Counted from the first letter of the stretch, positions 5,264 to 63,362 are shown. The stretch is DNA of 64,000 nucleotides from Candidatus Cibiobacter qucibialis (GCA_004000625.1 SAUS01000001.1:3639-67638); one strand, 5' to 3'. The notes: a model not told the origin generated them from the letters alone. Numbers and translations: made by a program.

Positions 5264-6240
<977 letters not shown>

Positions 6241-6263: not shown

Positions 6264-7115
6264 ATGCAGGCAGTAATCAACGTGGCCATAGCGCCGCTTA
6301 CCACAAACCCGGCCCTCTGGGCGCAGAACCCGCAGCAATCCCGTCTGGTGGATGAGCTTTTGCTGGGCATGCCGGTGGAAATTACCGGCGAAGCCGAACA
6401 GCACATGGTACCGGTACGCACCTTTTACGGCTATACCGGCTGGGCAGCACAGGATGCTTTGCTGACTGGCCCCAAGACGGAAGAATGGCTGGTTCAGCCG
6501 CAGATGGTGGTCATAGCCCGCTGGGCTGATGTGCTGGCGGAACCCCGTGTGCAGGGGGCCTGCGTGGCTGCTGGCCTGCCCTTAGGCGCCCGCGTGGCCG
6601 TGCAGGGGGAGCCGGAAGACGGCTGGCAGGCCGTAACGCTGCCGGATGGCCGCACCGGTTACCTGCGTGCGGATGCGCTGGCCCCACTGTACACCCAGCC
6701 CTGCGAGCAGGACCAGGAAAAGCTGCGTGCAGCCATTGCCCAGGCAGCCAAGCGCTACCTTGGCACGCCCTACCGCTGGGGCGGCAAAACCCCGGCGGGC
6801 ATTGATTGCTCCGGCCTGTGCAGCATGGCATACCTGCTGTGCGGTATTTCCATCTGGCGGGATTCCGAGCTGAAAGAGGGCTACCCCATCCATCCGGCCC
6901 ATGTTTCGGATATGCGCGTGGGAGATCTGGTGTATTTCCCCGGCCATGTGGCGCTCTATCTTGGCAATGGAGAGTACATTCATTCCACCGCGCGAGCAGG
7001 GGATAATGGTGTTGTGATCAACAGCTTTTACCCGGATTCCCCCCTCTACCGCCCTGACCTGCCCAAGCAGATCACCGCAGTAGGCTCCTACTTTGCCCGC
7101 CGGGAGGCAACCTGA
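6264..7115 (+). CDS. NlpC/P60 (C40) gamma-D-glutamyl-L-diamino acid endopeptidase, YkfC-like with N-terminal SH3b domains
   Basis: C-terminal NlpC/P60 catalytic motifs (GIDCSGL...H...H); size and two N-terminal SH3b-like regions as in B. subtilis YkfC, which is also encoded next to a dipeptide ABC transporter. Confidence 0.75.
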   Translation: MQAVINVAIAPLTTNPALWAQNPQQSRLVDELLLGMPVEITGEAEQHMVPVRTFYGYTGWAAQDALLTGPKTEEWLVQPQMVVIARWADVLAEPRVQGACVAAGLPLGARVAVQGEPEDGWQAVTLPDGRTGYLRADALAPLYTQPCEQDQEKLRAAIAQAAKRYLGTPYRWGGKTPAGIDCSGLCSMAYLLCGISIWRDSELKEGYPIHPAHVSDMRVGDLVYFPGHVALYLGNGEYIHSTARAGDNGVVINSFYPDSPLYRPDLPKQITAVGSYFARREAT

Positions 7116-7257: not shown

Positions 7258-7365
7258 GGCGGGAGCTGGTGGATTCGCCAAGCCGCGGTCTAAGCAACAG
7301 TCCGCAGGACTGTTGCTTGCCGCCTTCGGGCGGCCGACCTGTTCGAACCCTACCAGTTCCAGCAC
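7258..7365 (-). pseudogene. Degenerate tRNA-Tyr-like remnant / small structured element (two perfect hairpins incl. GCCGCC-UUCG-GGCGGC)
   Basis: Shares a 17-nt identical block (GGGAGCTGGTGGATTCG) plus GACTGT and TGCTTA segments with the adjacent tRNA-Tyr 3' half but lacks anticodon loop and part of the T-loop; cannot be folded into a cloverleaf. Confidence 0.35.
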
Positions 7366-7370
7366 AAAAA

Positions 7371-7396
7371 AAGACCCGCAACCTCAGTTGCGGATC
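7371..7396. terminator. Bidirectional hairpin terminator (GACCCGCAAC-CTCA-GTTGCGGATC) with A-run / T-run on either side
   Basis: 10-bp stem; TTTTTTT on the minus strand terminates tRNA-Tyr; TCTCTTTT on plus strand. Confidence 0.6.
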
Positions 7397-7401
7397 TCTT
7401 T

Positions 7402-7486
7402 TGGTGGGAGCTGGTGGATTCGAACCACCGAAGCATTAAGCAGCAGATTTACAGTCTGTCCCCATTGGCCACTCGGGAAAGCTCCC
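7402..7486 (-). tRNA. tRNA-Tyr (anticodon GTA), type II with long variable arm, CCA encoded
   Basis: Cloverleaf folded by hand: acceptor GGGAGCT/AGCTCCC, anticodon loop CTGTAAA, T-arm GGTGG-TTCGAAT-CCACC, discriminator A, CCA. Confidence 0.85.
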
Positions 7487-7742
7487 ATATTCATTTGTGC
7501 GCCTGCCTTAACAGTGCTTGATTAGTATATCAGAGCCTGAGCAAAAATGCAAGCCCTATTTTGAAAAAAATTGAAGTTTTTTGCTGCAATGCGGGAAAAT
7601 GGGGTAAAAGATGCTGTATAACGAACAATTTTCGCGCGAGAAGGCACAGTGGTTAATAATTTGAAGAAAAGCCCAAAAAGCCCTTGCTTTTTTGCGGCGG
7701 GTATGCTAAAATACATTTTGCAATGCCAAGGCATTGCCTTAT

Positions 7743-7983: not shown

Positions 7984-8877
7984 TCATTCGTAGGTGCGGC
8001 GTCCGGCAAAAATGCACAGAGGGCGGTTACACTTGCCGGTGCCCATCAGCTGGGTGGCGGCACACAGAGTTGCGCCGGCGCTGGAACAGGCGGGGATGCC
8101 GTCATAGAACAGCACCTCCCGTGCGGCGCGCTCGGCATCGGCCGAGGAGACCGTCAGCACGGTATCCACTACATAGGGGTTATAGTTTTCCGGCACAAAA
8201 CCAGGCCCGATGCCCGCAATGCTGTGGTGGCCAATGAACCCGCCGGAAATGGCGGCGCATTCGCTGGGCTCCACGGCCACAATGCGGATCATGCTGTTCC
8301 AGGCTTTCAGGTATTCCGCCACGCCGGTAATGGTGCCGCCGCTGCCCACGCCGATCACCACAGCATCGATCGCATCCCCGGCGGCTTTTAAAATCTGGGG
8401 ACCGGTCACGCGGCGGTGGTATTCGGGGTTATCATCATTGGCAAAGTAGTTGGTAAAGTAACCGTTATAGCGGGCGGCGGTGTCTTTGGCAACCTGTTCC
8501 AGCGCACGGCGGCCGCCGCTGCCGCATACCACAATGCGCGCCCCCAGGTTTTGCAGATGCTGCCTGCGGGAAAGCGGTAGGCTGCTGGGCACCACCAGAA
8601 TGCAGGGGTGGCCTGTGGTGGCGCAGCTTACCGCAAGGGCAGCGCCAAAGCTGCCGGAACTGGCTTCCACCACCGGCATACCGGGCTGCAATGTGCCGCG
8701 CTCGGTGGCAAAAGCCAGCATAGTTTCGGCCACGCCGTCCTTGCAGGTGCCGGTAGCGCCGCCGAAATCCAGATATGCCAATATGCTGGAAGCAAGTTCG
8801 TGCCGCCCGGAATACCCCGAAAGCCGCACCACCGGGGAACGGTACACGTCCTGATAATAGCTCTGCAATATTGCCAT
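7984..8877 (-). CDS. PLP-dependent cysteine synthase family protein (CysK/CysM-like)
   Basis: ~298 aa from ATG at 8877 (RBS AAGGAGG); PLP-lysine motif region (GTCKDG), glycine-rich loop GSGGT, fold II tryptophan-synthase-beta signature. Upstream part of the 363-aa ORF is unsupported. Confidence 0.75.
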   Translation of the reverse strand: MAILQSYYQDVYRSPVVRLSGYSGRHELASSILAYLDFGGATGTCKDGVAETMLAFATERGTLQPGMPVVEASSGSFGAALAVSCATTGHPCILVVPSSLPLSRRQHLQNLGARIVVCGSGGRRALEQVAKDTAARYNGYFTNYFANDDNPEYHRRVTGPQILKAAGDAIDAVVIGVGSGGTITGVAEYLKAWNSMIRIVAVEPSECAAISGGFIGHHSIAGIGPGFVPENYNPYVVDTVLTVSSADAERAAREVLFYDGIPACSSAGATLCAATQLMGTGKCNRPLCIFAGRRTYE

Positions 8878-12174: not shown

Positions 12175-13413
12175 ATGCGCATTGATATTGTCACCCTGTT
12201 CCCGGAACTGTGCGATAGCTTTTTGAGCACCAGCATCCTGGGCCGTGCCCGTGCCAAAAACCTGTTTGAAGCGCACTGCCACCAGATCCGGGATTATACC
12301 AAAAACAAACAGCGCCAGACGGACGATTACCCCTATGGCGGCGGCTGCGGCATGGTGCTGTATGCTCAGCCCATTGCAGATTGCCTGCGCGCTGTGGCGG
12401 ACCAGTGCGCCCAGCAGGGCCGCGCCAAACCCCATGTGGTGTTTTTGACCGCCGCCGGGCAGCCCTATAACGAGGAGACCGCCCGCCGGCTTTCCAGCTA
12501 TGAAAGCCTTGCGCTGGTGTGCGGCCACTATGAGGGCATTGACCAGCGCGTGATCGATACCTTTGGCGATGAGGAAATTTCCATCGGCGACTATGTGCTG
12601 ACCGGCGGCGAGCTGGCCAGCCTGGTGGTGGCAGATAGTGTGCTGCGCCTGCAGCCCGGCGTTCTGGCCGAGGAAAAGGGCTATCAGGACGAAAGCTACT
12701 GGGACGGCCTGCTGGAATACCCCCAGTTCACCCGCCCGGAAGTGTGGGAGGGCCAGGCCATCCCGCCGGTGCTGCTGACCGGCGACCACAATAAAATTGA
12801 CGCCTGGCGCGGCCGCCAGAGCCGGGAACGCACCCGCCAGCGCCGCCCGGACCTGTATGACCAGTGGTGCGCCACCCACCCGATCACCCAGATCCCGCGC
12901 TGGAAGCGCACCGAGCGTGCCCAGCTGATCAAGACGGATGCCCAGCTGGATGCAGCCGCAAAACTGTTTGCCGAAGGCTGCCGCACCGTCTGCCGGGATG
13001 TGTGCACCGAAGCAGGCCTTGCAGAATATACGCCGGAAGTCATGCGCCAGCGCCTGGAAGAAGAGCGCAAGGCGGGTTGGGCATTCTACCTGCACACCAC
13101 TTCGGATACGCCGGACGGCATGGTGGGTGTCTGCCATAAAACGGGGGAGATCAGCCACCTGTTTGTCACACAGTCCGCCCGCGGCAGCGGCATTGGCACA
13201 AAGCTGCTGGATTTTGCGCGCAAAAAACTTGCGGAGCACGCCCGGCCCTGGCTGGCCGTGCTGGATGTAAACACGGCGGCCATCGGCCTTTACCGGCGCA
13301 TGGGCTACCTGCCGGATGGCGTGCGGAACATGTACCAGCCGGGGGGGAATGTAGCATTCTGCAAGCCCTGCAAAGAGCTTGTTATGCGCTATCAGCCCCA
13401 GGATCAAGGCTGA
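12175..13413 (+). CDS. trmD: tRNA (guanine37-N1)-methyltransferase TrmD fused to a C-terminal GNAT N-acetyltransferase domain
   Basis: Residues 1-~235 are full TrmD (SPOUT; ends ...RRPDLYDQW); residues ~240-412 carry a GNAT acetyl-CoA motif (QSARGSGIGTKLLDFA...LDVNTAAIGLYRRMGY). Single uninterrupted ORF. Confidence 0.8.
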   Translation: MRIDIVTLFPELCDSFLSTSILGRARAKNLFEAHCHQIRDYTKNKQRQTDDYPYGGGCGMVLYAQPIADCLRAVADQCAQQGRAKPHVVFLTAAGQPYNEETARRLSSYESLALVCGHYEGIDQRVIDTFGDEEISIGDYVLTGGELASLVVADSVLRLQPGVLAEEKGYQDESYWDGLLEYPQFTRPEVWEGQAIPPVLLTGDHNKIDAWRGRQSRERTRQRRPDLYDQWCATHPITQIPRWKRTERAQLIKTDAQLDAAAKLFAEGCRTVCRDVCTEAGLAEYTPEVMRQRLEEERKAGWAFYLHTTSDTPDGMVGVCHKTGEISHLFVTQSARGSGIGTKLLDFARKKLAEHARPWLAVLDVNTAAIGLYRRMGYLPDGVRNMYQPGGNVAFCKPCKELVMRYQPQDQG

Positions 13414-16021: not shown

Positions 16022-16193
16022 GGCAACACCGCACAATTCCCGCCTTACGGCTTAAGCACCGCTTCGGCGGCTGCGGCACGGCATCTGCGTTGCCAAAATG
16101 CTCGATAAGACATCCAGTATTATCTGCGCTTTTGGCTTAGCATCTGCCGCACCTCGCTCGCCGTATCGGCACTTAGAATTATGCGGTATTGCC
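16022..16193. repeat. ~172-bp palindromic intergenic repeat, copy B
   Basis: ~95% identical to copies A, C, D; between uvrC and rsmD. Confidence 0.85.
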
Positions 16194-19620: not shown

Positions 19621-19679
19621 GGCAATACCGCATAACTTTGGGTGCCCAAGCCGTCAGGTGGGAATCATGCGGTGCTGCC
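19621..19679. repeat. Miniature derivative of the 172-bp repeat (terminal inverted repeats only)
   Basis: GGCAATACCGCAT...ATGCGGTGCTGCC flanking a 30-nt core with its own palindrome TTGGGTGCCCAA; between ftsL and pbp. Confidence 0.5.
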
Positions 19680-26194: not shown

Positions 26195-26246
26195 GAATTC
26201 CCGCATGCCTGCGGAAAGCATTGTTCTCTTTGGTTTCAGATATAAG

Positions 26247-26417
26247 GCAATACCGCACAATTCCCGCCTTACGGCTTAAGCACCGCTCCGGCGGCTGCGG
26301 CACGGCATCTGCGTTGCCAAAATACTCGATAATACACAAAGTATTATCTGCGCTTTTGGCTTAGCAGCTGCCGCACCTCGCTCGCCGTATCGGCACTTAG
26401 AATTATGCGGTATTGCC
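26247..26417. repeat. ~172-bp palindromic intergenic repeat, copy C (inside dcw cluster between ftsW and murG)
   Basis: Same family; central hairpin loop differs (ACAAA vs ATCCAG) while stem GATAATAC/GTATTATC is perfect. Confidence 0.85.
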
Positions 26418-30913: not shown

Positions 30914-31023
30914 AGCATGATAATAAAGCCATCATTTACGGTGCGGTAGGGCGGGATGCCCTTATCCCGCCGTGGAGAAACTTTGCCGGTTGCGGCAAAC
31001 GCCGCAAATAATTTGTAGGGGAC

Positions 31024-31186
31024 GATGCTCGTCATCGTCCCGTGAACGAGCCGTGGCCAATCATTTACCCCCACATATGGCAAACGACCGCTGGCGCACA
31101 ATGTGCGCCCCTACGGGTGGGATGTATGGTAAATGATGATTGCGCGTTATAAAACGCGCTCTGTAGGGAACGGTCTTGATCGTTCC
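31024..31186. repeat. Cluster of four REP-like hairpin units (GTAGGGG-hairpin, inverted unit, GC hairpin, CTGTAGGG-hairpin)
   Basis: GACGATGCTCGTCATCGTCC, GGCGCACAATGTGCGCC, GCGCGTTATAAAACGCGC, GGAACGGTCTTGATCGTTCC; units shared with 2078-2100 and 51017-51042. Confidence 0.5.
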
Positions 31187-49688: not shown

Positions 49689-50927
49689 TCAAACGCGGCC
49701 TTCCAAAATAAAATGTTCCAGTTTGCGCAGCAGCTCGCTGCGGCGGTAATGCGCAAGATAATATTCTTTGGCGCTCTGGCCCATGGCGGCGCGCTGGGCG
49801 GCGTCCATGCGGGTCAGTGCCAGCAGGTTGTCTGCCAGGGCAGCGGCATCACAGGCAGGGGAGCTTAACCCGCCTGCCGCGGCAACCGCCGCATTGCCGG
49901 CACCGTCCATACTGGCCAGGACCGGCTTGCCGGCGGCCATATAACTGGCAACCTTGGCCGGTACGGTCAGCCCCAAGTCCGGCGAATCCGACAGGCAGAC
50001 GATCAAAGCATCGGCCAGCGCGGTGAACTTGGGGATATCCGTTGCCGGAACACTGCCATAAAACGTAACGGCGTCCTCGGCGTGCAGCTCTTTCACTTTG
50101 GCTTCCAGCGCGGCGCGGCTCATGCCATCGCCCACCAGCAACAGGTGCAACATATCCGCCCCGCGGCTGCGCACATCCTGCACCGCCGTGATGACGGTCT
50201 CCAGGCTTTGGGCGGGGGTAAAAGTGCCGGTAAACACCAAGTTGAACCGCCCGCCGAACTGCGCCTGCAAAGCGGCATCCGGCTGAGGAACGGCGTAAAA
50301 ATCCTCGCAGTACTGCGGGATCACAGCAATTTTTTGCGGCGGCATACCGGTGCGCTGGCACAGCCGCTGCTGCAGCGGCTCACTCATGGCAATCAGTCGG
50401 TCGGCCTTCTTATATAAAGCGTCGCTTACACCCTGGGCAATCGCGCGCAGGGCTTTGTTCTTCACATTCAGCACGCTGTACAGGTTTTCGGGCCAGATAT
50501 CCAGCACATAGTTGGTAAAGGGAATGTGGTGCTTTTTGGCATAGCGGATGGCGGGCCAGCACATCAGTACCGGGCTGGTGTTAAAGCAGAACACCGCATC
50601 GTACCCGCCCGGCAGGCGATGCAGCGCATGGGCGGCGTACCACGGCCAGCTGACATAGTTCAAAAAAATGTTGACCGAGGTGTTGCCCCTGCGCGGAACC
50701 TCTTTGCAGCGGTACAGGCGGGCACCGTGCCATTCTTCTTCAAAAGGGCCGGCAGCGCTGTAACCGGGGAACCATTCGCCTTTTGGGTAATTGGGCAGCC
50801 CGCAAAGCACATCCACCGCAATGCCATCCTGCAAAAAACCTTCCACAATATCATTGATGCGGAAATTTTCCGGCCAGAAATGCTGCGTAACAACAAGAAT
50901 CTTTTTTTGAGAGGGCAAAGGGCACAC
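49689..50927 (-). CDS. Family 4 glycosyltransferase, WbuB-like (L-FucNAc transferase family)
   Basis: 412 aa; KILVVTQHFWPENFRINDI N-terminus typical of WbuB/WbjE-type GT4; co-located with FnlA/B/C homologues. Confidence 0.75.
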   Translation of the reverse strand: MCPLPSQKKILVVTQHFWPENFRINDIVEGFLQDGIAVDVLCGLPNYPKGEWFPGYSAAGPFEEEWHGARLYRCKEVPRRGNTSVNIFLNYVSWPWYAAHALHRLPGGYDAVFCFNTSPVLMCWPAIRYAKKHHIPFTNYVLDIWPENLYSVLNVKNKALRAIAQGVSDALYKKADRLIAMSEPLQQRLCQRTGMPPQKIAVIPQYCEDFYAVPQPDAALQAQFGGRFNLVFTGTFTPAQSLETVITAVQDVRSRGADMLHLLLVGDGMSRAALEAKVKELHAEDAVTFYGSVPATDIPKFTALADALIVCLSDSPDLGLTVPAKVASYMAAGKPVLASMDGAGNAAVAAAGGLSSPACDAAALADNLLALTRMDAAQRAAMGQSAKEYYLAHYRRSELLRKLEHFILEGRV

Positions 50928-50935
50928 ACCTTTCG

Positions 50936-51106
50936 AAAGTTAGGAGTTAGGAAGTAGGAGTTAGGAGCTGAAGAACGGCTGCTAGACTTGAGGTCTTTTG
51001 CAATCTATAAAATGCTCTGTAGGGAACGATCTTGACCGTTCCAAAGCATTCAGCTTGTCGCAGCCTCAAAAAACTCCTAACTCCTCACTCCAACCTCCTA
51101 ACTAAA
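50936..51106. repeat. ~170-bp inverted-repeat element 1 (AGGAG-rich arm ... REP-like core ... CTCCT-rich arm) between GT4 and fnlC
   Basis: Arms GTTAGGAGTTAGGAAGTAGGAGTTAGGAG / CTCCTAACTCCTCACTCCAACCTCCTAAC; core contains CTGTAGGGAACGATCTTGACCGTTCC; paralogous copy at 52265-52425. Confidence 0.7.
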
Positions 51107-51111
51107 AAAAC

Positions 51112-52251
51112 TCAGTTTTTTCTCCACACCATCTTATTAACCACCCCGGTGTAGCTCTGGATGATCTTGACGACCTTGGTGGAAACGTCTTCAGTGTAGT
51201 AGGGGACGGGGATGCCGTTGTCGCCGTTGGCGTTCATGGCAACGGCGGTGGCAACTGCCTGTTCCACGCCGCCCTCGCTGATGCCGGCCAGCACAAAGCA
51301 GCCTTTGTCCAGTGCTTCAGGTCGCTCGGTGGAGGTACGGATGCAGACAGCCGGGAACGGATGTCCCACGCTGGTAAAGAAGCTGGATTCCTCCGGCAGG
51401 GTGCCGGAATCGCTGACCACGGCAAATGCGTTCATCTGCAGATGGTTGTAATCATGGAAGCCCAGGGGCTCATGCAGCTTTACGCGCTCGTCCAGCTGGA
51501 AGCCCATGGCGTCCAGCCGCTTTTTGCTGCGCGGATGGCAGGAATACAGTATGGGCATATCATAGGTCTGGGCCAGGTGATTGATGGAGGTGAACAGGTC
51601 GATAAAGTTCTTTTCGGTATCAATGTTCTCCTCGCGGTGGGCGGAAAGCAGCATGTATTTGTGCGGCTCCAGCCCCAGGCGCTCCAGCACATCGCTGGCT
51701 TCGATCTTGGCCAGGTTGGCGTGCAGCACTTCCGCCATGGGGGAACCGGTCACAAAGGTGCGCTCCTTGGCGGTGCCTTCGGCATTCAGGTAACGGCGGG
51801 CATGCTCGGAATAGCACATGTTCACATCGGAAATGTGGTCCACAATGCGGCGGTTGGTTTCCTCAGGCAGGCACTCGTCAAAGCAGCGGTTGCCGGCTTC
51901 CATGTGGAAGATGGGAATGTGCAGCCGCTTGGCCGCAATGGCGGAAAGGCAGCTGTTGGTATCGCCCAGAATCAGCAGGGCATCGGGCTTCTGTTCCACC
52001 ATCAGGGAGTAGGACTTGGCAATAATGTTGCCGATGGTTTCACCCAGGTCCTTGCCGACGGCATCCAGATAGAAATCCGGCGCACGCAGGCCCAGGTCCT
52101 CAAAGAATACCTGATTCAGGTTATAATCATAGTTCTGGCCGGTGTGGACTAGAATCTGGTCAAAATACACATCACACTTTTTAATCACAGCCGACAGCCG
52201 AATGATCTCCGGCCGCGTGCCGATAATGGTCATAAGTTTGAGCTTGTTCAT
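51112..52251 (-). CDS. UDP-N-acetylglucosamine 2-epimerase (non-hydrolysing), FnlC/CapG/WecB-like
   Basis: 379 aa from MNKLKLMTIIGTRPEIIRL; epimerase motifs; upstream 43 codons of the long ORF translate the repeat element and are discarded. Confidence 0.85.
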   Translation of the reverse strand: MNKLKLMTIIGTRPEIIRLSAVIKKCDVYFDQILVHTGQNYDYNLNQVFFEDLGLRAPDFYLDAVGKDLGETIGNIIAKSYSLMVEQKPDALLILGDTNSCLSAIAAKRLHIPIFHMEAGNRCFDECLPEETNRRIVDHISDVNMCYSEHARRYLNAEGTAKERTFVTGSPMAEVLHANLAKIEASDVLERLGLEPHKYMLLSAHREENIDTEKNFIDLFTSINHLAQTYDMPILYSCHPRSKKRLDAMGFQLDERVKLHEPLGFHDYNHLQMNAFAVVSDSGTLPEESSFFTSVGHPFPAVCIRTSTERPEALDKGCFVLAGISEGGVEQAVATAVAMNANGDNGIPVPYYTEDVSTKVVKIIQSYTGVVNKMVWRKN

Positions 52252-52264
52252 TGTAAAACACCCG

Positions 52265-52425
52265 ATACAGTTAGAAGGTAGGAGTGAGGAGTTAGGCGTT
52301 GAAGAACGACTGCTGGTTTTATTGTCTTCCGCAAACGATAAAGAGTTTCGCAGGGAACGGCTTTGAATGTTCTGAGACATTTACCTTGCCCAGGTTTCAA
52401 AACTCCTAACTCCTACCTGAGTATG
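52265..52425. repeat. ~160-bp inverted-repeat element 2 (paralogue of element 1) between fnlC and fnlB
   Basis: Arms GTTAGAAGGTAGGAGTGAGGAGTTAGG / AAACTCCTAACTCCTACCT; shared internal block TGAAGAACG(A/G)CTGCT and degenerate GCAGGGAACGG core. Confidence 0.65.
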
Positions 52426-52438
52426 TACGTTTAAAATG

Positions 52439-53638
52439 TTACACTTTCAAAAAGAACGTGTCCGGCTTGGCGGGGTCAAACGGTTCGTTGGCCCACATCA
52501 GGGTCACAAGGTTTTCAGTATCGCTTAAGTTGATGATGTTGTGGGTGCAGCCGGGCAGCATCTGCACGGCGGTGGGCTTATCGCCCCACACCTCAAACTC
52601 CATCACTTCGTCACAGCCAACTTTGCGCTCCTGAATCAGCCCGTGGCCGGAAACCACAATAAAAAATTCCCACTTGGTGTTGTGCCAGTGCTGGCCCTTG
52701 GTAATGCCGGGCTTGGAAATGTTCACGCTGAACTGGCCGCAGTTTTCGGTTTTCAGCAGCTCGGTAAAGCTGCCGCGCTCGTCTGCGTTGACTTTTAAGG
52801 GGAAGGCAATCCGCTCCTTGGGCAGGTAGGAAAGATAGGTGGAATACAGCTTTTTGGCAAAGCTGCCCGCCGGGATCTCCGGCACCACCAGCGTGGCGGG
52901 CTGGGCGTGGAACTGTTCCAACAGATCCACAATCTCCCCAAGGGTCACTTTGTGGGTGACGGGAACAAAGCAGTAACGGCCATCCACGGCAGGCACCGGG
53001 GTAAGGCCGTCATAATTGCAGCGGTGGGGCGCAGCTTCCAGCGCATCCAGCATCTCTTCTACCAGATCGTCAATGTACAGCAGTTCCAGCTCAGTTGCGC
53101 GGTCATTGACGGTGATGGGCAGGCCGTTGGCAATGTTGTGGCAGAAAGTAGCCACGGCGCTGTTGTAGTTGGGGCGGCACCATTTGCCAAACAGGTTGGG
53201 AAAGCGGTAAACCAGCACCGGGGCGCCGGTGGTTTTGCTGTATTCAAAGAACAGTTCTTCTCCGGCCAGCTTGCTTTTGCCGTAATCGCTTTTGCCATAG
53301 CGGCCGATCAGCGTGGCCTGAATGGAGCTGGACAGCATCACCGGGCAGGTGTTGCCGTGGGCTTTCAGCGTATCCAGCAGGGTGGAGGCAAAGCCGAAAT
53401 TACCTGCCATGAACTCGCTTTCCACTTTGGGGCGGTTGACCCCGGCCAGGTTGAATACAAAGTCTGCCTTGGCGCAGTATTCATCCAGCAGCGCCGGAGC
53501 CGTGTCCAGGTCATACTCAAAAATATCAGTAATGTTCAGGGCCGGGCGGGTGCGGTTTTTGCCATCGCGGATATTTTTCAGGTTTTCACACAGATTGCGC
53601 CCGACAAACCCCTTTGCCCCGGTGACAAGAATGTTCAT
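52439..53638 (-). CDS. CapF/FnlB-like bifunctional reductase/epimerase (SDR domain + C-terminal cupin)
   Basis: 399 aa; MNILVTGAKGFVGRNL Rossmann motif, C-terminal cupin (WHNTKWEFFIVVSGHG); canonical second enzyme of UDP-L-FucNAc pathway. Confidence 0.8.
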   Translation of the reverse strand: MNILVTGAKGFVGRNLCENLKNIRDGKNRTRPALNITDIFEYDLDTAPALLDEYCAKADFVFNLAGVNRPKVESEFMAGNFGFASTLLDTLKAHGNTCPVMLSSSIQATLIGRYGKSDYGKSKLAGEELFFEYSKTTGAPVLVYRFPNLFGKWCRPNYNSAVATFCHNIANGLPITVNDRATELELLYIDDLVEEMLDALEAAPHRCNYDGLTPVPAVDGRYCFVPVTHKVTLGEIVDLLEQFHAQPATLVVPEIPAGSFAKKLYSTYLSYLPKERIAFPLKVNADERGSFTELLKTENCGQFSVNISKPGITKGQHWHNTKWEFFIVVSGHGLIQERKVGCDEVMEFEVWGDKPTAVQMLPGCTHNIINLSDTENLVTLMWANEPFDPAKPDTFFLKV

Positions 53639-54687
53639 GCCTTGCCTGCCTCTTTCAGTGCTTCCTGGATGTACTCGGTGGTCATGATCTTTTTGATGGT
53701 GCCCTCCACATCCAGGCGGCGGGTGTTGTGGCTGGTATAATCTTCATCGGCCTGGGTGTGAACCTGGCCCTTGATGAAGTACTTGTCATAGTTCAAGTCG
53801 CGGTTGTCGGCGGCAACGCGGTAATAGTTGCCCATATCCTCGCTGCGCATCCGCTCTTCCTTGGTCATCAGGGTCTCGTACAGCTTTTCGCCGTGGCGGG
53901 TGCCGATCACGCGGGTGCCGGTGTCGCCAAACAGCTGCTGCACGGCTTTGGCCAGATCGCCAATGGTGGAAGCATCGGATTTCTGGATGAACAGATCACC
54001 CGGATTGGCGTGCTCAAAGGCAAACATGACAAGGTCAACGGCCTCGTCCAGGTTCATCAAAAAGCGGGTCATGTTGGGATCGGTGATGGTAATGGGGTTG
54101 CCGGCCTTGATCTGCTCCACAAACAGCGGAATCACGCTGCCGCGGCTGCACATCACGTTGCCGTAACGGGTGCAGCAGATGACCGGGCCGCCGCGCTGTG
54201 CGCTGACACGCGCGTTGGCAGTGATAACATGCTCCATCATGGCCTTGGAGATGCCCATGGCATTGATGGGGTAAGCGGCTTTATCGGTAGAAAGGCAGAC
54301 CACGCGCTCCACGCCTGCTTCAATGGCGGCATGCAGCATGTTGTCGGTGCCTTCAATGTTGGTGCGCACGGCCTCCATGGGGAAAAACTCGCAGGAAGGA
54401 ACCTGCTTGAGCGCAGCGGCATGGAAGATAAAGTTGACGCCGGGCATCACATCGCGCAGGCTCTGGATGTTGCGCACATCGCCGATGTAGAACTTGACTT
54501 TATTGTAATAGTCAGGATAGTTGGCCTGCAGCTCATGGCGCATGTCGTCCTGCTTTTTCTCGTCACGGCTGAAAATGCGGATCTCGCCGATATCAGTCGT
54601 CAAAAAATGCTTGAGCACGGTGTGGCCAAAGCTGCCGGTGCCGCCGGTGATCAACAAGGTTTTATCTTTGAAAATGGTATTTGCCAT
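53635..54687 (-). CDS. UDP-GlcNAc 4,6-dehydratase/5-epimerase, CapE/FnlA-like (short CapD family)
   Basis: 350 aa; LLITGGTGSFG, SxxK/YxxxK (MGISKAM) SDR extended family; 4-nt overlap with downstream fnlB-like gene. Confidence 0.85.
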   Translation of the reverse strand: MANTIFKDKTLLITGGTGSFGHTVLKHFLTTDIGEIRIFSRDEKKQDDMRHELQANYPDYYNKVKFYIGDVRNIQSLRDVMPGVNFIFHAAALKQVPSCEFFPMEAVRTNIEGTDNMLHAAIEAGVERVVCLSTDKAAYPINAMGISKAMMEHVITANARVSAQRGGPVICCTRYGNVMCSRGSVIPLFVEQIKAGNPITITDPNMTRFLMNLDEAVDLVMFAFEHANPGDLFIQKSDASTIGDLAKAVQQLFGDTGTRVIGTRHGEKLYETLMTKEERMRSEDMGNYYRVAADNRDLNYDKYFIKGQVHTQADEDYTSHNTRRLDVEGTIKKIMTTEYIQEALKEAGKA

Positions 54688-63190: not shown

Positions 63191-63362
63191 GGCAATACCG
63201 CACAATTCCCGCCTAACGGCTCAAGCACCGCTCCGGCGGCTGCGGCACGGCATCTGCGTTGCCAAAATGCTCGATAAGACATCCAGTATTATCTGCGCTT
63301 TTGGCTTAGCAGCTGCCGCACCTCGCTCGCCGTATCGGCACTTAGAATTATGCGGTATCGCC
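63191..63362. repeat. ~172-bp palindromic intergenic repeat, copy D
   Basis: Same family as A-C. Confidence 0.85.

Follow-up and report, generated by a model that had tools for sequence, protein, structure and literature searches.

A probable foldback repeat with tandem heptamer arms and mosaic cores fills both intergenic spacers around fnlC in Gemmiger qucibialis

We analysed a stretch of 64,000 nt (the window) from Gemmiger qucibialis ("Subdoligranulum sp."), a host belonging to the Clostridia, in which genes resembling fnlA and fnlB, the UDP-GlcNAc 2-epimerase gene fnlC and a glycosyltransferase gene follow one another on the minus strand. The two spacers that flank fnlC measure 187 and 193 nt and contain one copy each of an element of about 165 bp, which we name E1. 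Our comparisons indicate that E1 is probably a dispensable foldback repeat, similar to transposable elements of the miniature inverted-repeat type (MITEs) and bacterial interspersed mosaic elements (BIMEs), and no dedicated regulator of fnlC. The genes and the parts of both E1 copies, including those related to repetitive extragenic palindromes (REPs), are arranged as follows.

53635-54687, minus strand: fnlA-like gene (Pfam)
52439-53638, minus strand: fnlB-like gene with Epimerase and Polysacc_synt_C domains (Pfam); its stop codon lies 22 nt ahead of the E1 arm
52265-52425: E1 copy in the fnlB-fnlC spacer, in the same orientation as the other copy (alignment, fold; site empty in alleles L095 and L098)
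52399-52418, plus strand: complementary right arm AAAACTCCTAACTCCTACCT of this copy (complementarity)
52350-52374, plus strand: decayed REP module GCAGGGAACGGCTTTGAATGTTCTG, with GCAG for GTAG and the stem mostly lost (alignment)
52301-52315, plus strand: conserved block TGAAGAACGACTGCT (alignment, motif scan)
52269-52300, plus strand: left arm AGTTAGAAGGTAGGAGTGAGGAGTTAGGCGTT (complementarity, motif scan)
51112-52251, minus strand: fnlC, 379 aa, with an Epimerase_2 domain (Pfam)
50936-51106: E1 copy in the fnlC-GT4 spacer, consisting of arm, core and arm (alignment, arm complementarity, fold)
51072-51103, plus strand: complementary right arm AACTCCTAACTCCTCACTCCAACCTCCTAACT of this copy (complementarity, motif scan)
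51019-51042, plus strand: GTAG-tagged REP hairpin GTAGGGAACGATCTTGACCGTTCC nested in the E1 core (second copy in the window, module in many related contigs)
50968-50983, plus strand: family-conserved block CTGAAGAACGGCTGCT adjoining the arm, a homologue of TTGAAGAAGCGGCTTGCGCCGC in the family's basic core (alignment)
50938-50967, plus strand: left arm of four 7-nt units, AGTTAGGAGTTAGGAAGTAGGAGTTAGGAG, of CTCC type on the mRNA strand (complementarity, motif scan)
49689-50918, minus strand: GT4 glycosyltransferase gene with a TTG start (Pfam); its Shine-Dalgarno (SD) sequence AAAGGTG starts about 4 nt past the E1 arm

The two E1 copies are homologous from end to end, with 79% column identity in a full-length pairwise alignment, which bears out the initial annotation of this DNA in its view that both spacers share one architecture. 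Each copy consists of arms built from tandem 7-nt units (GTTAGGA or its complement) round a core of about 105 nt. On the plus strand, AGTTAGG, AGTAGGA and GTGAGGA units stand in tandem in the left arms and CTCCTAA, CTCCTAC and CTCCTCA units in the right arms, and the arms are complementary over 30 nt at 83% in the fnlC-GT4 copy and over 18 nt at 94% in the fnlB-fnlC copy, thus providing the terminal inverted repeats that characterize MITEs. With up to 3 mismatches allowed, the sequence GTTAGGAGTTAGGAG has 11 matches in the window where 0.45 are expected, and all 11 fall within the two E1 copies, as do all 5 matches of the arm word CTCCTAAC (0.66 expected); the tandem units and complementary arms proposed earlier are therefore a genuine feature of these spacers. 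A conserved block, TGAAGAACGRCTGCT, is present in both copies (50969-50983 and 52301-52315), and no third match to it exists in the window at 3 mismatches.

Every arm unit combines a TAG or TGA stop codon with an AGGAG SD core, so that within the arm all three frames are closed by a stop. E1 is small and non-coding, with stops in all frames, and the sole open reading frame (ORF) passing through it, listed as 51112-52380, is an artefactual upstream extension of fnlC. This longest fnlC ORF reaches 43 codons upstream into E1, and a public gene call of 433 aa (P0158) appears to contain the same kind of extension; the repeat can thus mislead the annotation of start codons.

The mRNA strand of the fnlC-GT4 spacer is predicted to fold at -74.3 kcal/mol (z = -7.2) and that of the fnlB-fnlC spacer at -47.2 kcal/mol (z = -3.1), which agrees with the earlier expectation of a long mRNA hairpin per element and of spacers that are not random; the opposite strand of both spacers is predicted to fold about equally well. 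The predicted stem begins 8-22 nt past the upstream stop codon and finishes about 4 nt ahead of the downstream SD-like motif (AAAGGTG for the GT4 gene, GGGTG for fnlC). Scans revealed no promoter-like (sigma-70-like) or terminator-like site inside either E1 copy and no excess of such sites over the region as a whole. Rfam gave no match in the region, neither at the gathering score nor at E values up to 10, and none for family members elsewhere, and a comparison of one E1 core with the other, or of one arm with the other, brought out no convincing covariation. E1 would be co-transcribed with the operon, and its arms would zip into a long, interrupted stem. Since the folded insert would keep the upstream stop near the next ribosome-binding site, an insertion of about 165 nt could be tolerable, and nearly neutral, in a tight operon. 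The long stem thus probably makes E1 tolerable and, by likeness to the Correia elements, a plausible and likely substrate of RNase III.

The assembly collection has 22,865 blocks with exactly this fnlC protein, under the source names Gemmiger qucibialis, Subdoligranulum sp. or Oscillospiraceae. From strains with this identical protein we compared 18 alleles of the fnl locus with near-identical flanking genes (the window, L089-L098 and L265-L271). E1 is missing from the fnlB-fnlC spacer, which is 24 nt long, in two alleles (L095 and L098), and four (L092, L093, L095 and L271) lack the E1 core in the fnlC-GT4 spacer, where the outermost arm units alone remain and surround a second element, E2. 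Such presence/absence polymorphism between strains is a further property that E1 shares with MITEs. The arms contain 2 to 4 of the 7-nt units among the 18 alleles, paired arms are often unequal, and the E1 core of L269 carries a deletion and a tandem duplication. In a relative with a 96% identical fnlC (L262; a cluster with 2,051 members), the fnlC-GT4 spacer measures 18 nt and the fnlB-fnlC spacer contains unrelated GC-rich palindromes and no E1, and in two relatives with an 89% identical fnlC (L263 and L264) the spacers measure 28 and 143 nt and are unlike E1. The absence of E1 from the spacers of these relatives argues for a lineage-specific insertion and not for a conserved design of the operon.

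The REP in the core of the fnlC-GT4 copy, GTAGGGAACGATCTTGACCGTTCC, recurs at 31163-31186 and in many related contigs, so that the REP-like 'CTGTAGGG + hairpin' at 51015-51042, which had been noticed before together with the conserved block, contains a true repeat. It has the composition of a GTAG REP, an unpaired GTAG tag with a 20-40-bp palindrome. Another REP, GTAGGGGCGCACATTGTGCGCCC, is found at 2078-2100, as a solitary copy that adjoins an E2 copy, and at 31092-31114. Four different 'GTAGGG + palindrome' units lie together at window positions 30941-31186 in a BIME-like cluster; with this cluster, the second copy of GTAGGGAACGATCTTGACCGTTCC and mosaics in prophages, the modules are both repeated and clustered, in keeping with REPs, whose clusters alternate in orientation. 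Between the prophage alleles of contigs L256 (about 5340-5640) and L214, the 23-nt REP GTAGGGGCGCACATTGTGCGCCC is precisely present or absent with no duplication, which shows directly that REPs are gained or lost. Judged by their sequence, the cores of the E1 family are mosaics of GTAG-tagged REP hairpins.

The GTAG REP superfamily, some members of which are embedded in long palindromes (Di Nocera et al. 2013, PMC3733652), resembles E1 in several respects. Anabaena variabilis GTAG-15 shows the same succession of an unpaired GTAG tag and a 20-40-bp palindrome as the E1 module GTAGGGAACG..CGTTCC; several REP classes join in mosaic clusters, as in the present system; and, as in E1, REPs are nested in a larger palindrome and lie between genes transcribed in the same direction (PMC3733652). 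Unlike the GTAG-15 palindromes, the outer arms of E1 are tandem 7-nt SD-like units without a fixed palindrome, and the host belongs to the Clostridia. The main text of that survey nowhere contains 'Firmicutes' or 'Clostridi', and GTAG REPs of Clostridia seem not to have been surveyed before.

E2 is a MITE of 172 bp that has GGCAAYACCGCAYAATTC as its terminal repeats and is present at a density of about one copy per 13 kb in the window:

2119-2290: E2 copy
16022-16193: E2 copy
19621-19679: E2 copy, 59-bp short form
26246-26417: E2 copy
63191-63362: E2 copy

Its 4-bp duplications are TTAG, ATAA and ATAA, with near-matches at the remaining two of the five copies, and fit NTAR, a target that presumably resembles those of IS5-type elements. 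In other strains, E2 insertions interrupt the TTAG/CTAA of the arms of E1; they occupy at least five positions, in both orientations, and account for the spacer alleles of 330-377 nt. The E2 variant in the fnlC-GT4 spacer of L092 and L093 has an extra GC-rich central insert of about 140 nt, and L090, L095 and L271 contain E2 forms with internal deletions.

Further copies of the arm-bearing element, whose absence would have counted against the initial annotation, do exist: the family occupies at least eight loci in Gemmiger-like contigs. E1-type arms together with a homologous core lie upstream of glnA in a different Gemmiger species (L169-L171), at the ecfT-truA junction (L259, L321-L324) and at two prophage loci, termed prophage locus 1 and prophage locus 2. 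At prophage locus 1, the junction between a presumed tape-measure gene (930 aa, without a Pfam match) and the next gene, both arms are present in about 39 contigs, and 4 more contigs were recognized by their flank; copies of this kind are also present in L260, L261 and L170. An alignment (A2) yields a basic core common to the E1, truA and prophage copies, which runs from TTGAAGAAGCGGCTTGCGCCGC through TTTTGAAA to CACACCAWAAACTCC, and by this comparison E1 is the basic family core plus an inserted REP hairpin. The ends of short contigs often fall within the arms (L255, L322 and L323), as is typical of a multi-copy repeat. The number and type of arm units differ between contigs of one locus, and in L317 and L318 a (GTGAGGA)x5 array stands opposite an unchanged partner arm; the arms thus vary independently, which points to evolution by slippage or homogenisation and not by compensatory change. 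Empty sites were encountered neither at prophage locus 1, where 35 of 35 contigs sought by flank are filled, nor among the 5 alleles of the ecfT-truA junction; a relative of 72% identity has a REP dimer at this junction in place of the arm element. Scans for the E1 core subtype itself yielded 88 matches to AGGNGNTGAAGAACGNCTGCT in the genome collection, all due to chance and none with arms, chance matches only in the viral collection (E1 block), and a single true match, L120, in the metagenomes once both known copies were excluded. In L120, fnlB and E1 (1-1141) are joined at the arm end to the glnA flank of the other Gemmiger species (1142 onward); this junction is probably an assembly chimera through a shared 26-nt arm, and possibly a real rearrangement.

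Taken as a whole, E1 is best read, from its anatomy and distribution, as a non-coding, non-autonomous and MITE-like element with a BIME-like mosaic core. In the lineage of Gemmiger qucibialis, the short spacers on the two sides of fnlC would each have received one of two diverged copies. Drift would have followed, in which arm units expand and contract, one REP decays, E2 inserts at its NTAR targets and whole cores are lost. A transposase, single-strand transposition of the type mediated by REP-associated tyrosine transposases (RAYTs) and recombination through the arms are candidates for the movement of the family. The proposal that E1 is a deliberate RNA element of the operon is not upheld by these data, because the element is missing or gutted in some strains and absent in relatives, its arms are unstable in length and do not co-vary, and the family is dispersed over unrelated loci and prophages.

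Several observations weigh against our interpretation. Most strains retain both E1 copies, whose orientation with respect to transcription never differs, and the arm units combine all-frame stops with SD cores. Phage hairpins made of the E1 heptamer (see below) hint that the hairpin may be useful and not just tolerated. No target-site duplication accompanies the E1-family arms at 7 independent insertions, and no transposase gene enclosed by E1-type arms was seen in the loci compared. At the lone empty site (CATT|ACTGTAT) the junction falls away from the ends of the arms, as 16 extra non-arm bases leave with the element, and the empty allele could thus be a secondary deletion. Finally, according to the genome-collection, metagenome and viral scans, the E1 core subtype is known from its two fnl sites only.

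A rival explanation is that E1 is a selected cis-acting RNA hairpin, which would serve as an RNase III processing site, a 3' stabiliser or a bridge for translational coupling, with arms that provide stops in all frames and a reservoir of masked SD sequences. The stems are strong in prediction, both copies are co-oriented and retained in most of the 18 alleles, a stop lies within the arm in every frame, and an arrangement with a stop just before the stem and a ribosome-binding site just after it recurs at several loci and, as hairpins from stop to ATG with no adjacent SD, at 8 of 11 junctions of a phage contig. We nevertheless regard this explanation as unlikely, although it is the strongest competitor: E1 is dispensable, as some strains and every relative examined lack it, its arms are unbalanced (2 units against 4) and show no co-variation, core structure differs between the two copies, both DNA strands fold equally well, and any element that fills a short spacer would give such a geometry.

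The phage contig in question, L235 (IMGVR_UViG_3300037843_000663), has a GC content of 65% and contains terminase, portal and capsid genes. At 8 of its 11 gene junctions it carries hairpins that consist of arms only, namely GGAGTTA-type arrays and their complement, for example:

5529-5624: L235 junction hairpin
5885-6015: L235 junction hairpin
6681-6790: L235 junction hairpin
7338-7497: L235 junction hairpin
8185-8266: L235 junction hairpin

The upstream TAG stop falls in the first or second heptamer unit, the next ATG follows 0-8 nt past the complementary array, and no SD lies beside it. This geometry suggests a device for hairpin-bridged termination-reinitiation or for processing. Two other junctions of L235 have GGATTTT-type arrays. 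Arrays of (AGGAGTT)n with at least 3 units are present in 41 viral stretches of IMG/VR (L272-L311), at GC contents from 39% to 71%; some form hairpins with a complementary array downstream, and some stand directly before the ATG or start codon. L245, L254 and L218 are further contigs with such arrays. Cluster K mycobacteriophages possess a comparable system, SAS/ESAS, in which a repeated motif including an SD is placed at gene starts and is sometimes paired with inverted repeats; it differs from the heptamer arrays in being a single 13-bp motif, with neither tandem arrays nor a long hairpin from stop to start. It is conceivable, though we attach a still lower probability to it than to a selected E1 hairpin, that hairpins of heptamers combining stop codon and SD core constitute an undescribed class of gene-junction elements in gut Clostridia and their phages, of which E1 and its relatives would represent chromosomal versions with loops colonised by REPs and MITEs. 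If such hairpins act in translation or RNA processing, gene junctions would be organised here in a novel manner.

A third explanation, an inverton in which a recombinase flips the core, or fnlC, between the arms to phase-vary a polysaccharide, appears very improbable. It would be in keeping with inverted repeats round a core of about 105 nt at a surface-polysaccharide locus, and with the 91% complementarity of the arms 51072-51103 and 52269-52300, which flank fnlC. Contigs of prophage locus 2 with the same flanks and arms moreover contain either a basic core of about 100 nt or an inverted core expanded by REP modules to about 230 nt (L204/L173/L230/L236 versus L277/L291/L312-L320). As these orientations also differ by large insertions, they look like old recombination alleles and not like the product of a flip. 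An inverted core or an inverted fnlC occurs in none of the 18 fnl alleles, no inversion is found at prophage locus 1 (about 39 + 4 contigs) or among 5 ecfT-truA and 3 glnA alleles, differences in orientation only are absent from about 80 alleles at five loci, and E1 has no promoter-like site.

Least of all can we credit the reading that the E1 pair represents attC-like or other recombination boundaries marking fnlC as a mobile cassette, a status of the gene that the initial annotation had raised as a possibility: two direct copies do bracket one gene, and GTTAGGC in the fnlB-fnlC copy fits the integron core-site pattern GTTRRRY, but on both strands the 5' end carries GTTAGG... and the 3' end ...CCTAAC, whereas attC needs RYYYAAC 5' and GTTRRRY 3', and this reversed polarity, together with an fnlA-fnlB-fnlC order that is conserved without E1, a complete lack of alleles without fnlC among the 18 and E1-type elements at loci devoid of cassette structure, makes the reading fail. 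Retrons, CRISPR and attC sites were ruled out by anatomy, and protein-binding arrays of the CsrA or TRAP type were dropped, since base pairing would occupy the GGA/UAG motifs, whose spacing would be unsuitable too.

Among known elements, the eukaryotic foldback (FB) transposons, which have long terminal inverted repeats of short tandem subrepeats, are similar to E1 in that the number of subrepeats varies between copies and arms and the central part is variable. They are of kilobase scale and unrelated in sequence, so the likeness is one of analogy only. The pneumococcal BOX, RUP and SPRITE elements, nested repeats that were judged parasitic (Croucher et al. 2011, PMC3049150), are modular and small like E1, with inner tandem units of variable number and long stem-loops formed by their complementary ends, and they can likewise be compared to E1 in being co-transcribed with genes, mutually nested and restricted to a species. 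They have no sequence relationship with E1, and the variable unit of BOX is the central boxB, whereas that of E1 lies in the terminal arms. Correia elements of Neisseria and other bacterial MITEs share with E1 a size of about 100-170 bp, terminal inverted repeats, positions between genes and within operons and polymorphism between strains, and Correia terminal repeats in co-transcribed mRNA are cut by RNase III (reviewed in PMC10969869). A TA duplication and repeats of a fixed 26 bp are features of Correia elements; E1, in contrast, has no target duplication and tandem arms of variable length. A literature search for the repeat sequence returned primer coincidences only, and the literature searched contains no description of the E1 family; one preprint reports MITEs common to Gemmiger and its phages, and its supplement holds no such sequence.

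Gemmiger qucibialis is among the commonest human gut bacteria, and its genome appears to be rich in small nested repeats, which include heptamer-arm elements, E2 and several classes of GTAG REPs. These repeats break assemblies, cause strain-level length variation in surface-polysaccharide operons and are common to prophages. As they vary by strain and are shared with prophages, they could serve strain typing and the linking of phages to hosts. For annotation of the fnl locus, we advise against labelling E1 as a regulator.

Minor observations concern other loci of the family. The arm element at glnA (L169, 1990-2190; L170, 2650-2870) is located between an upstream terminator and the glnA leader and contains an extended -10-like sequence, TGCTATAAT, directed at glnA; by its sequence, the element may supply a promoter there. 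The glnA leaders of L120 and L170 differ in a hairpin-like stretch, and a gene with an ANTAR domain lies 3' of glnA. In several Gemmiger-like assemblies (L321, 419-1182; L324, 1201-2089; L325, 1001-1760), gene calls divide truA into two ORFs of about 190 aa and 65-100 aa that overlap or adjoin, which may reflect a frameshifted or split gene or a recurrent sequencing error. The prophage contig L277 contains a skipping-rope RNA (RF02924, 52.8 bits) at 13107-13207.

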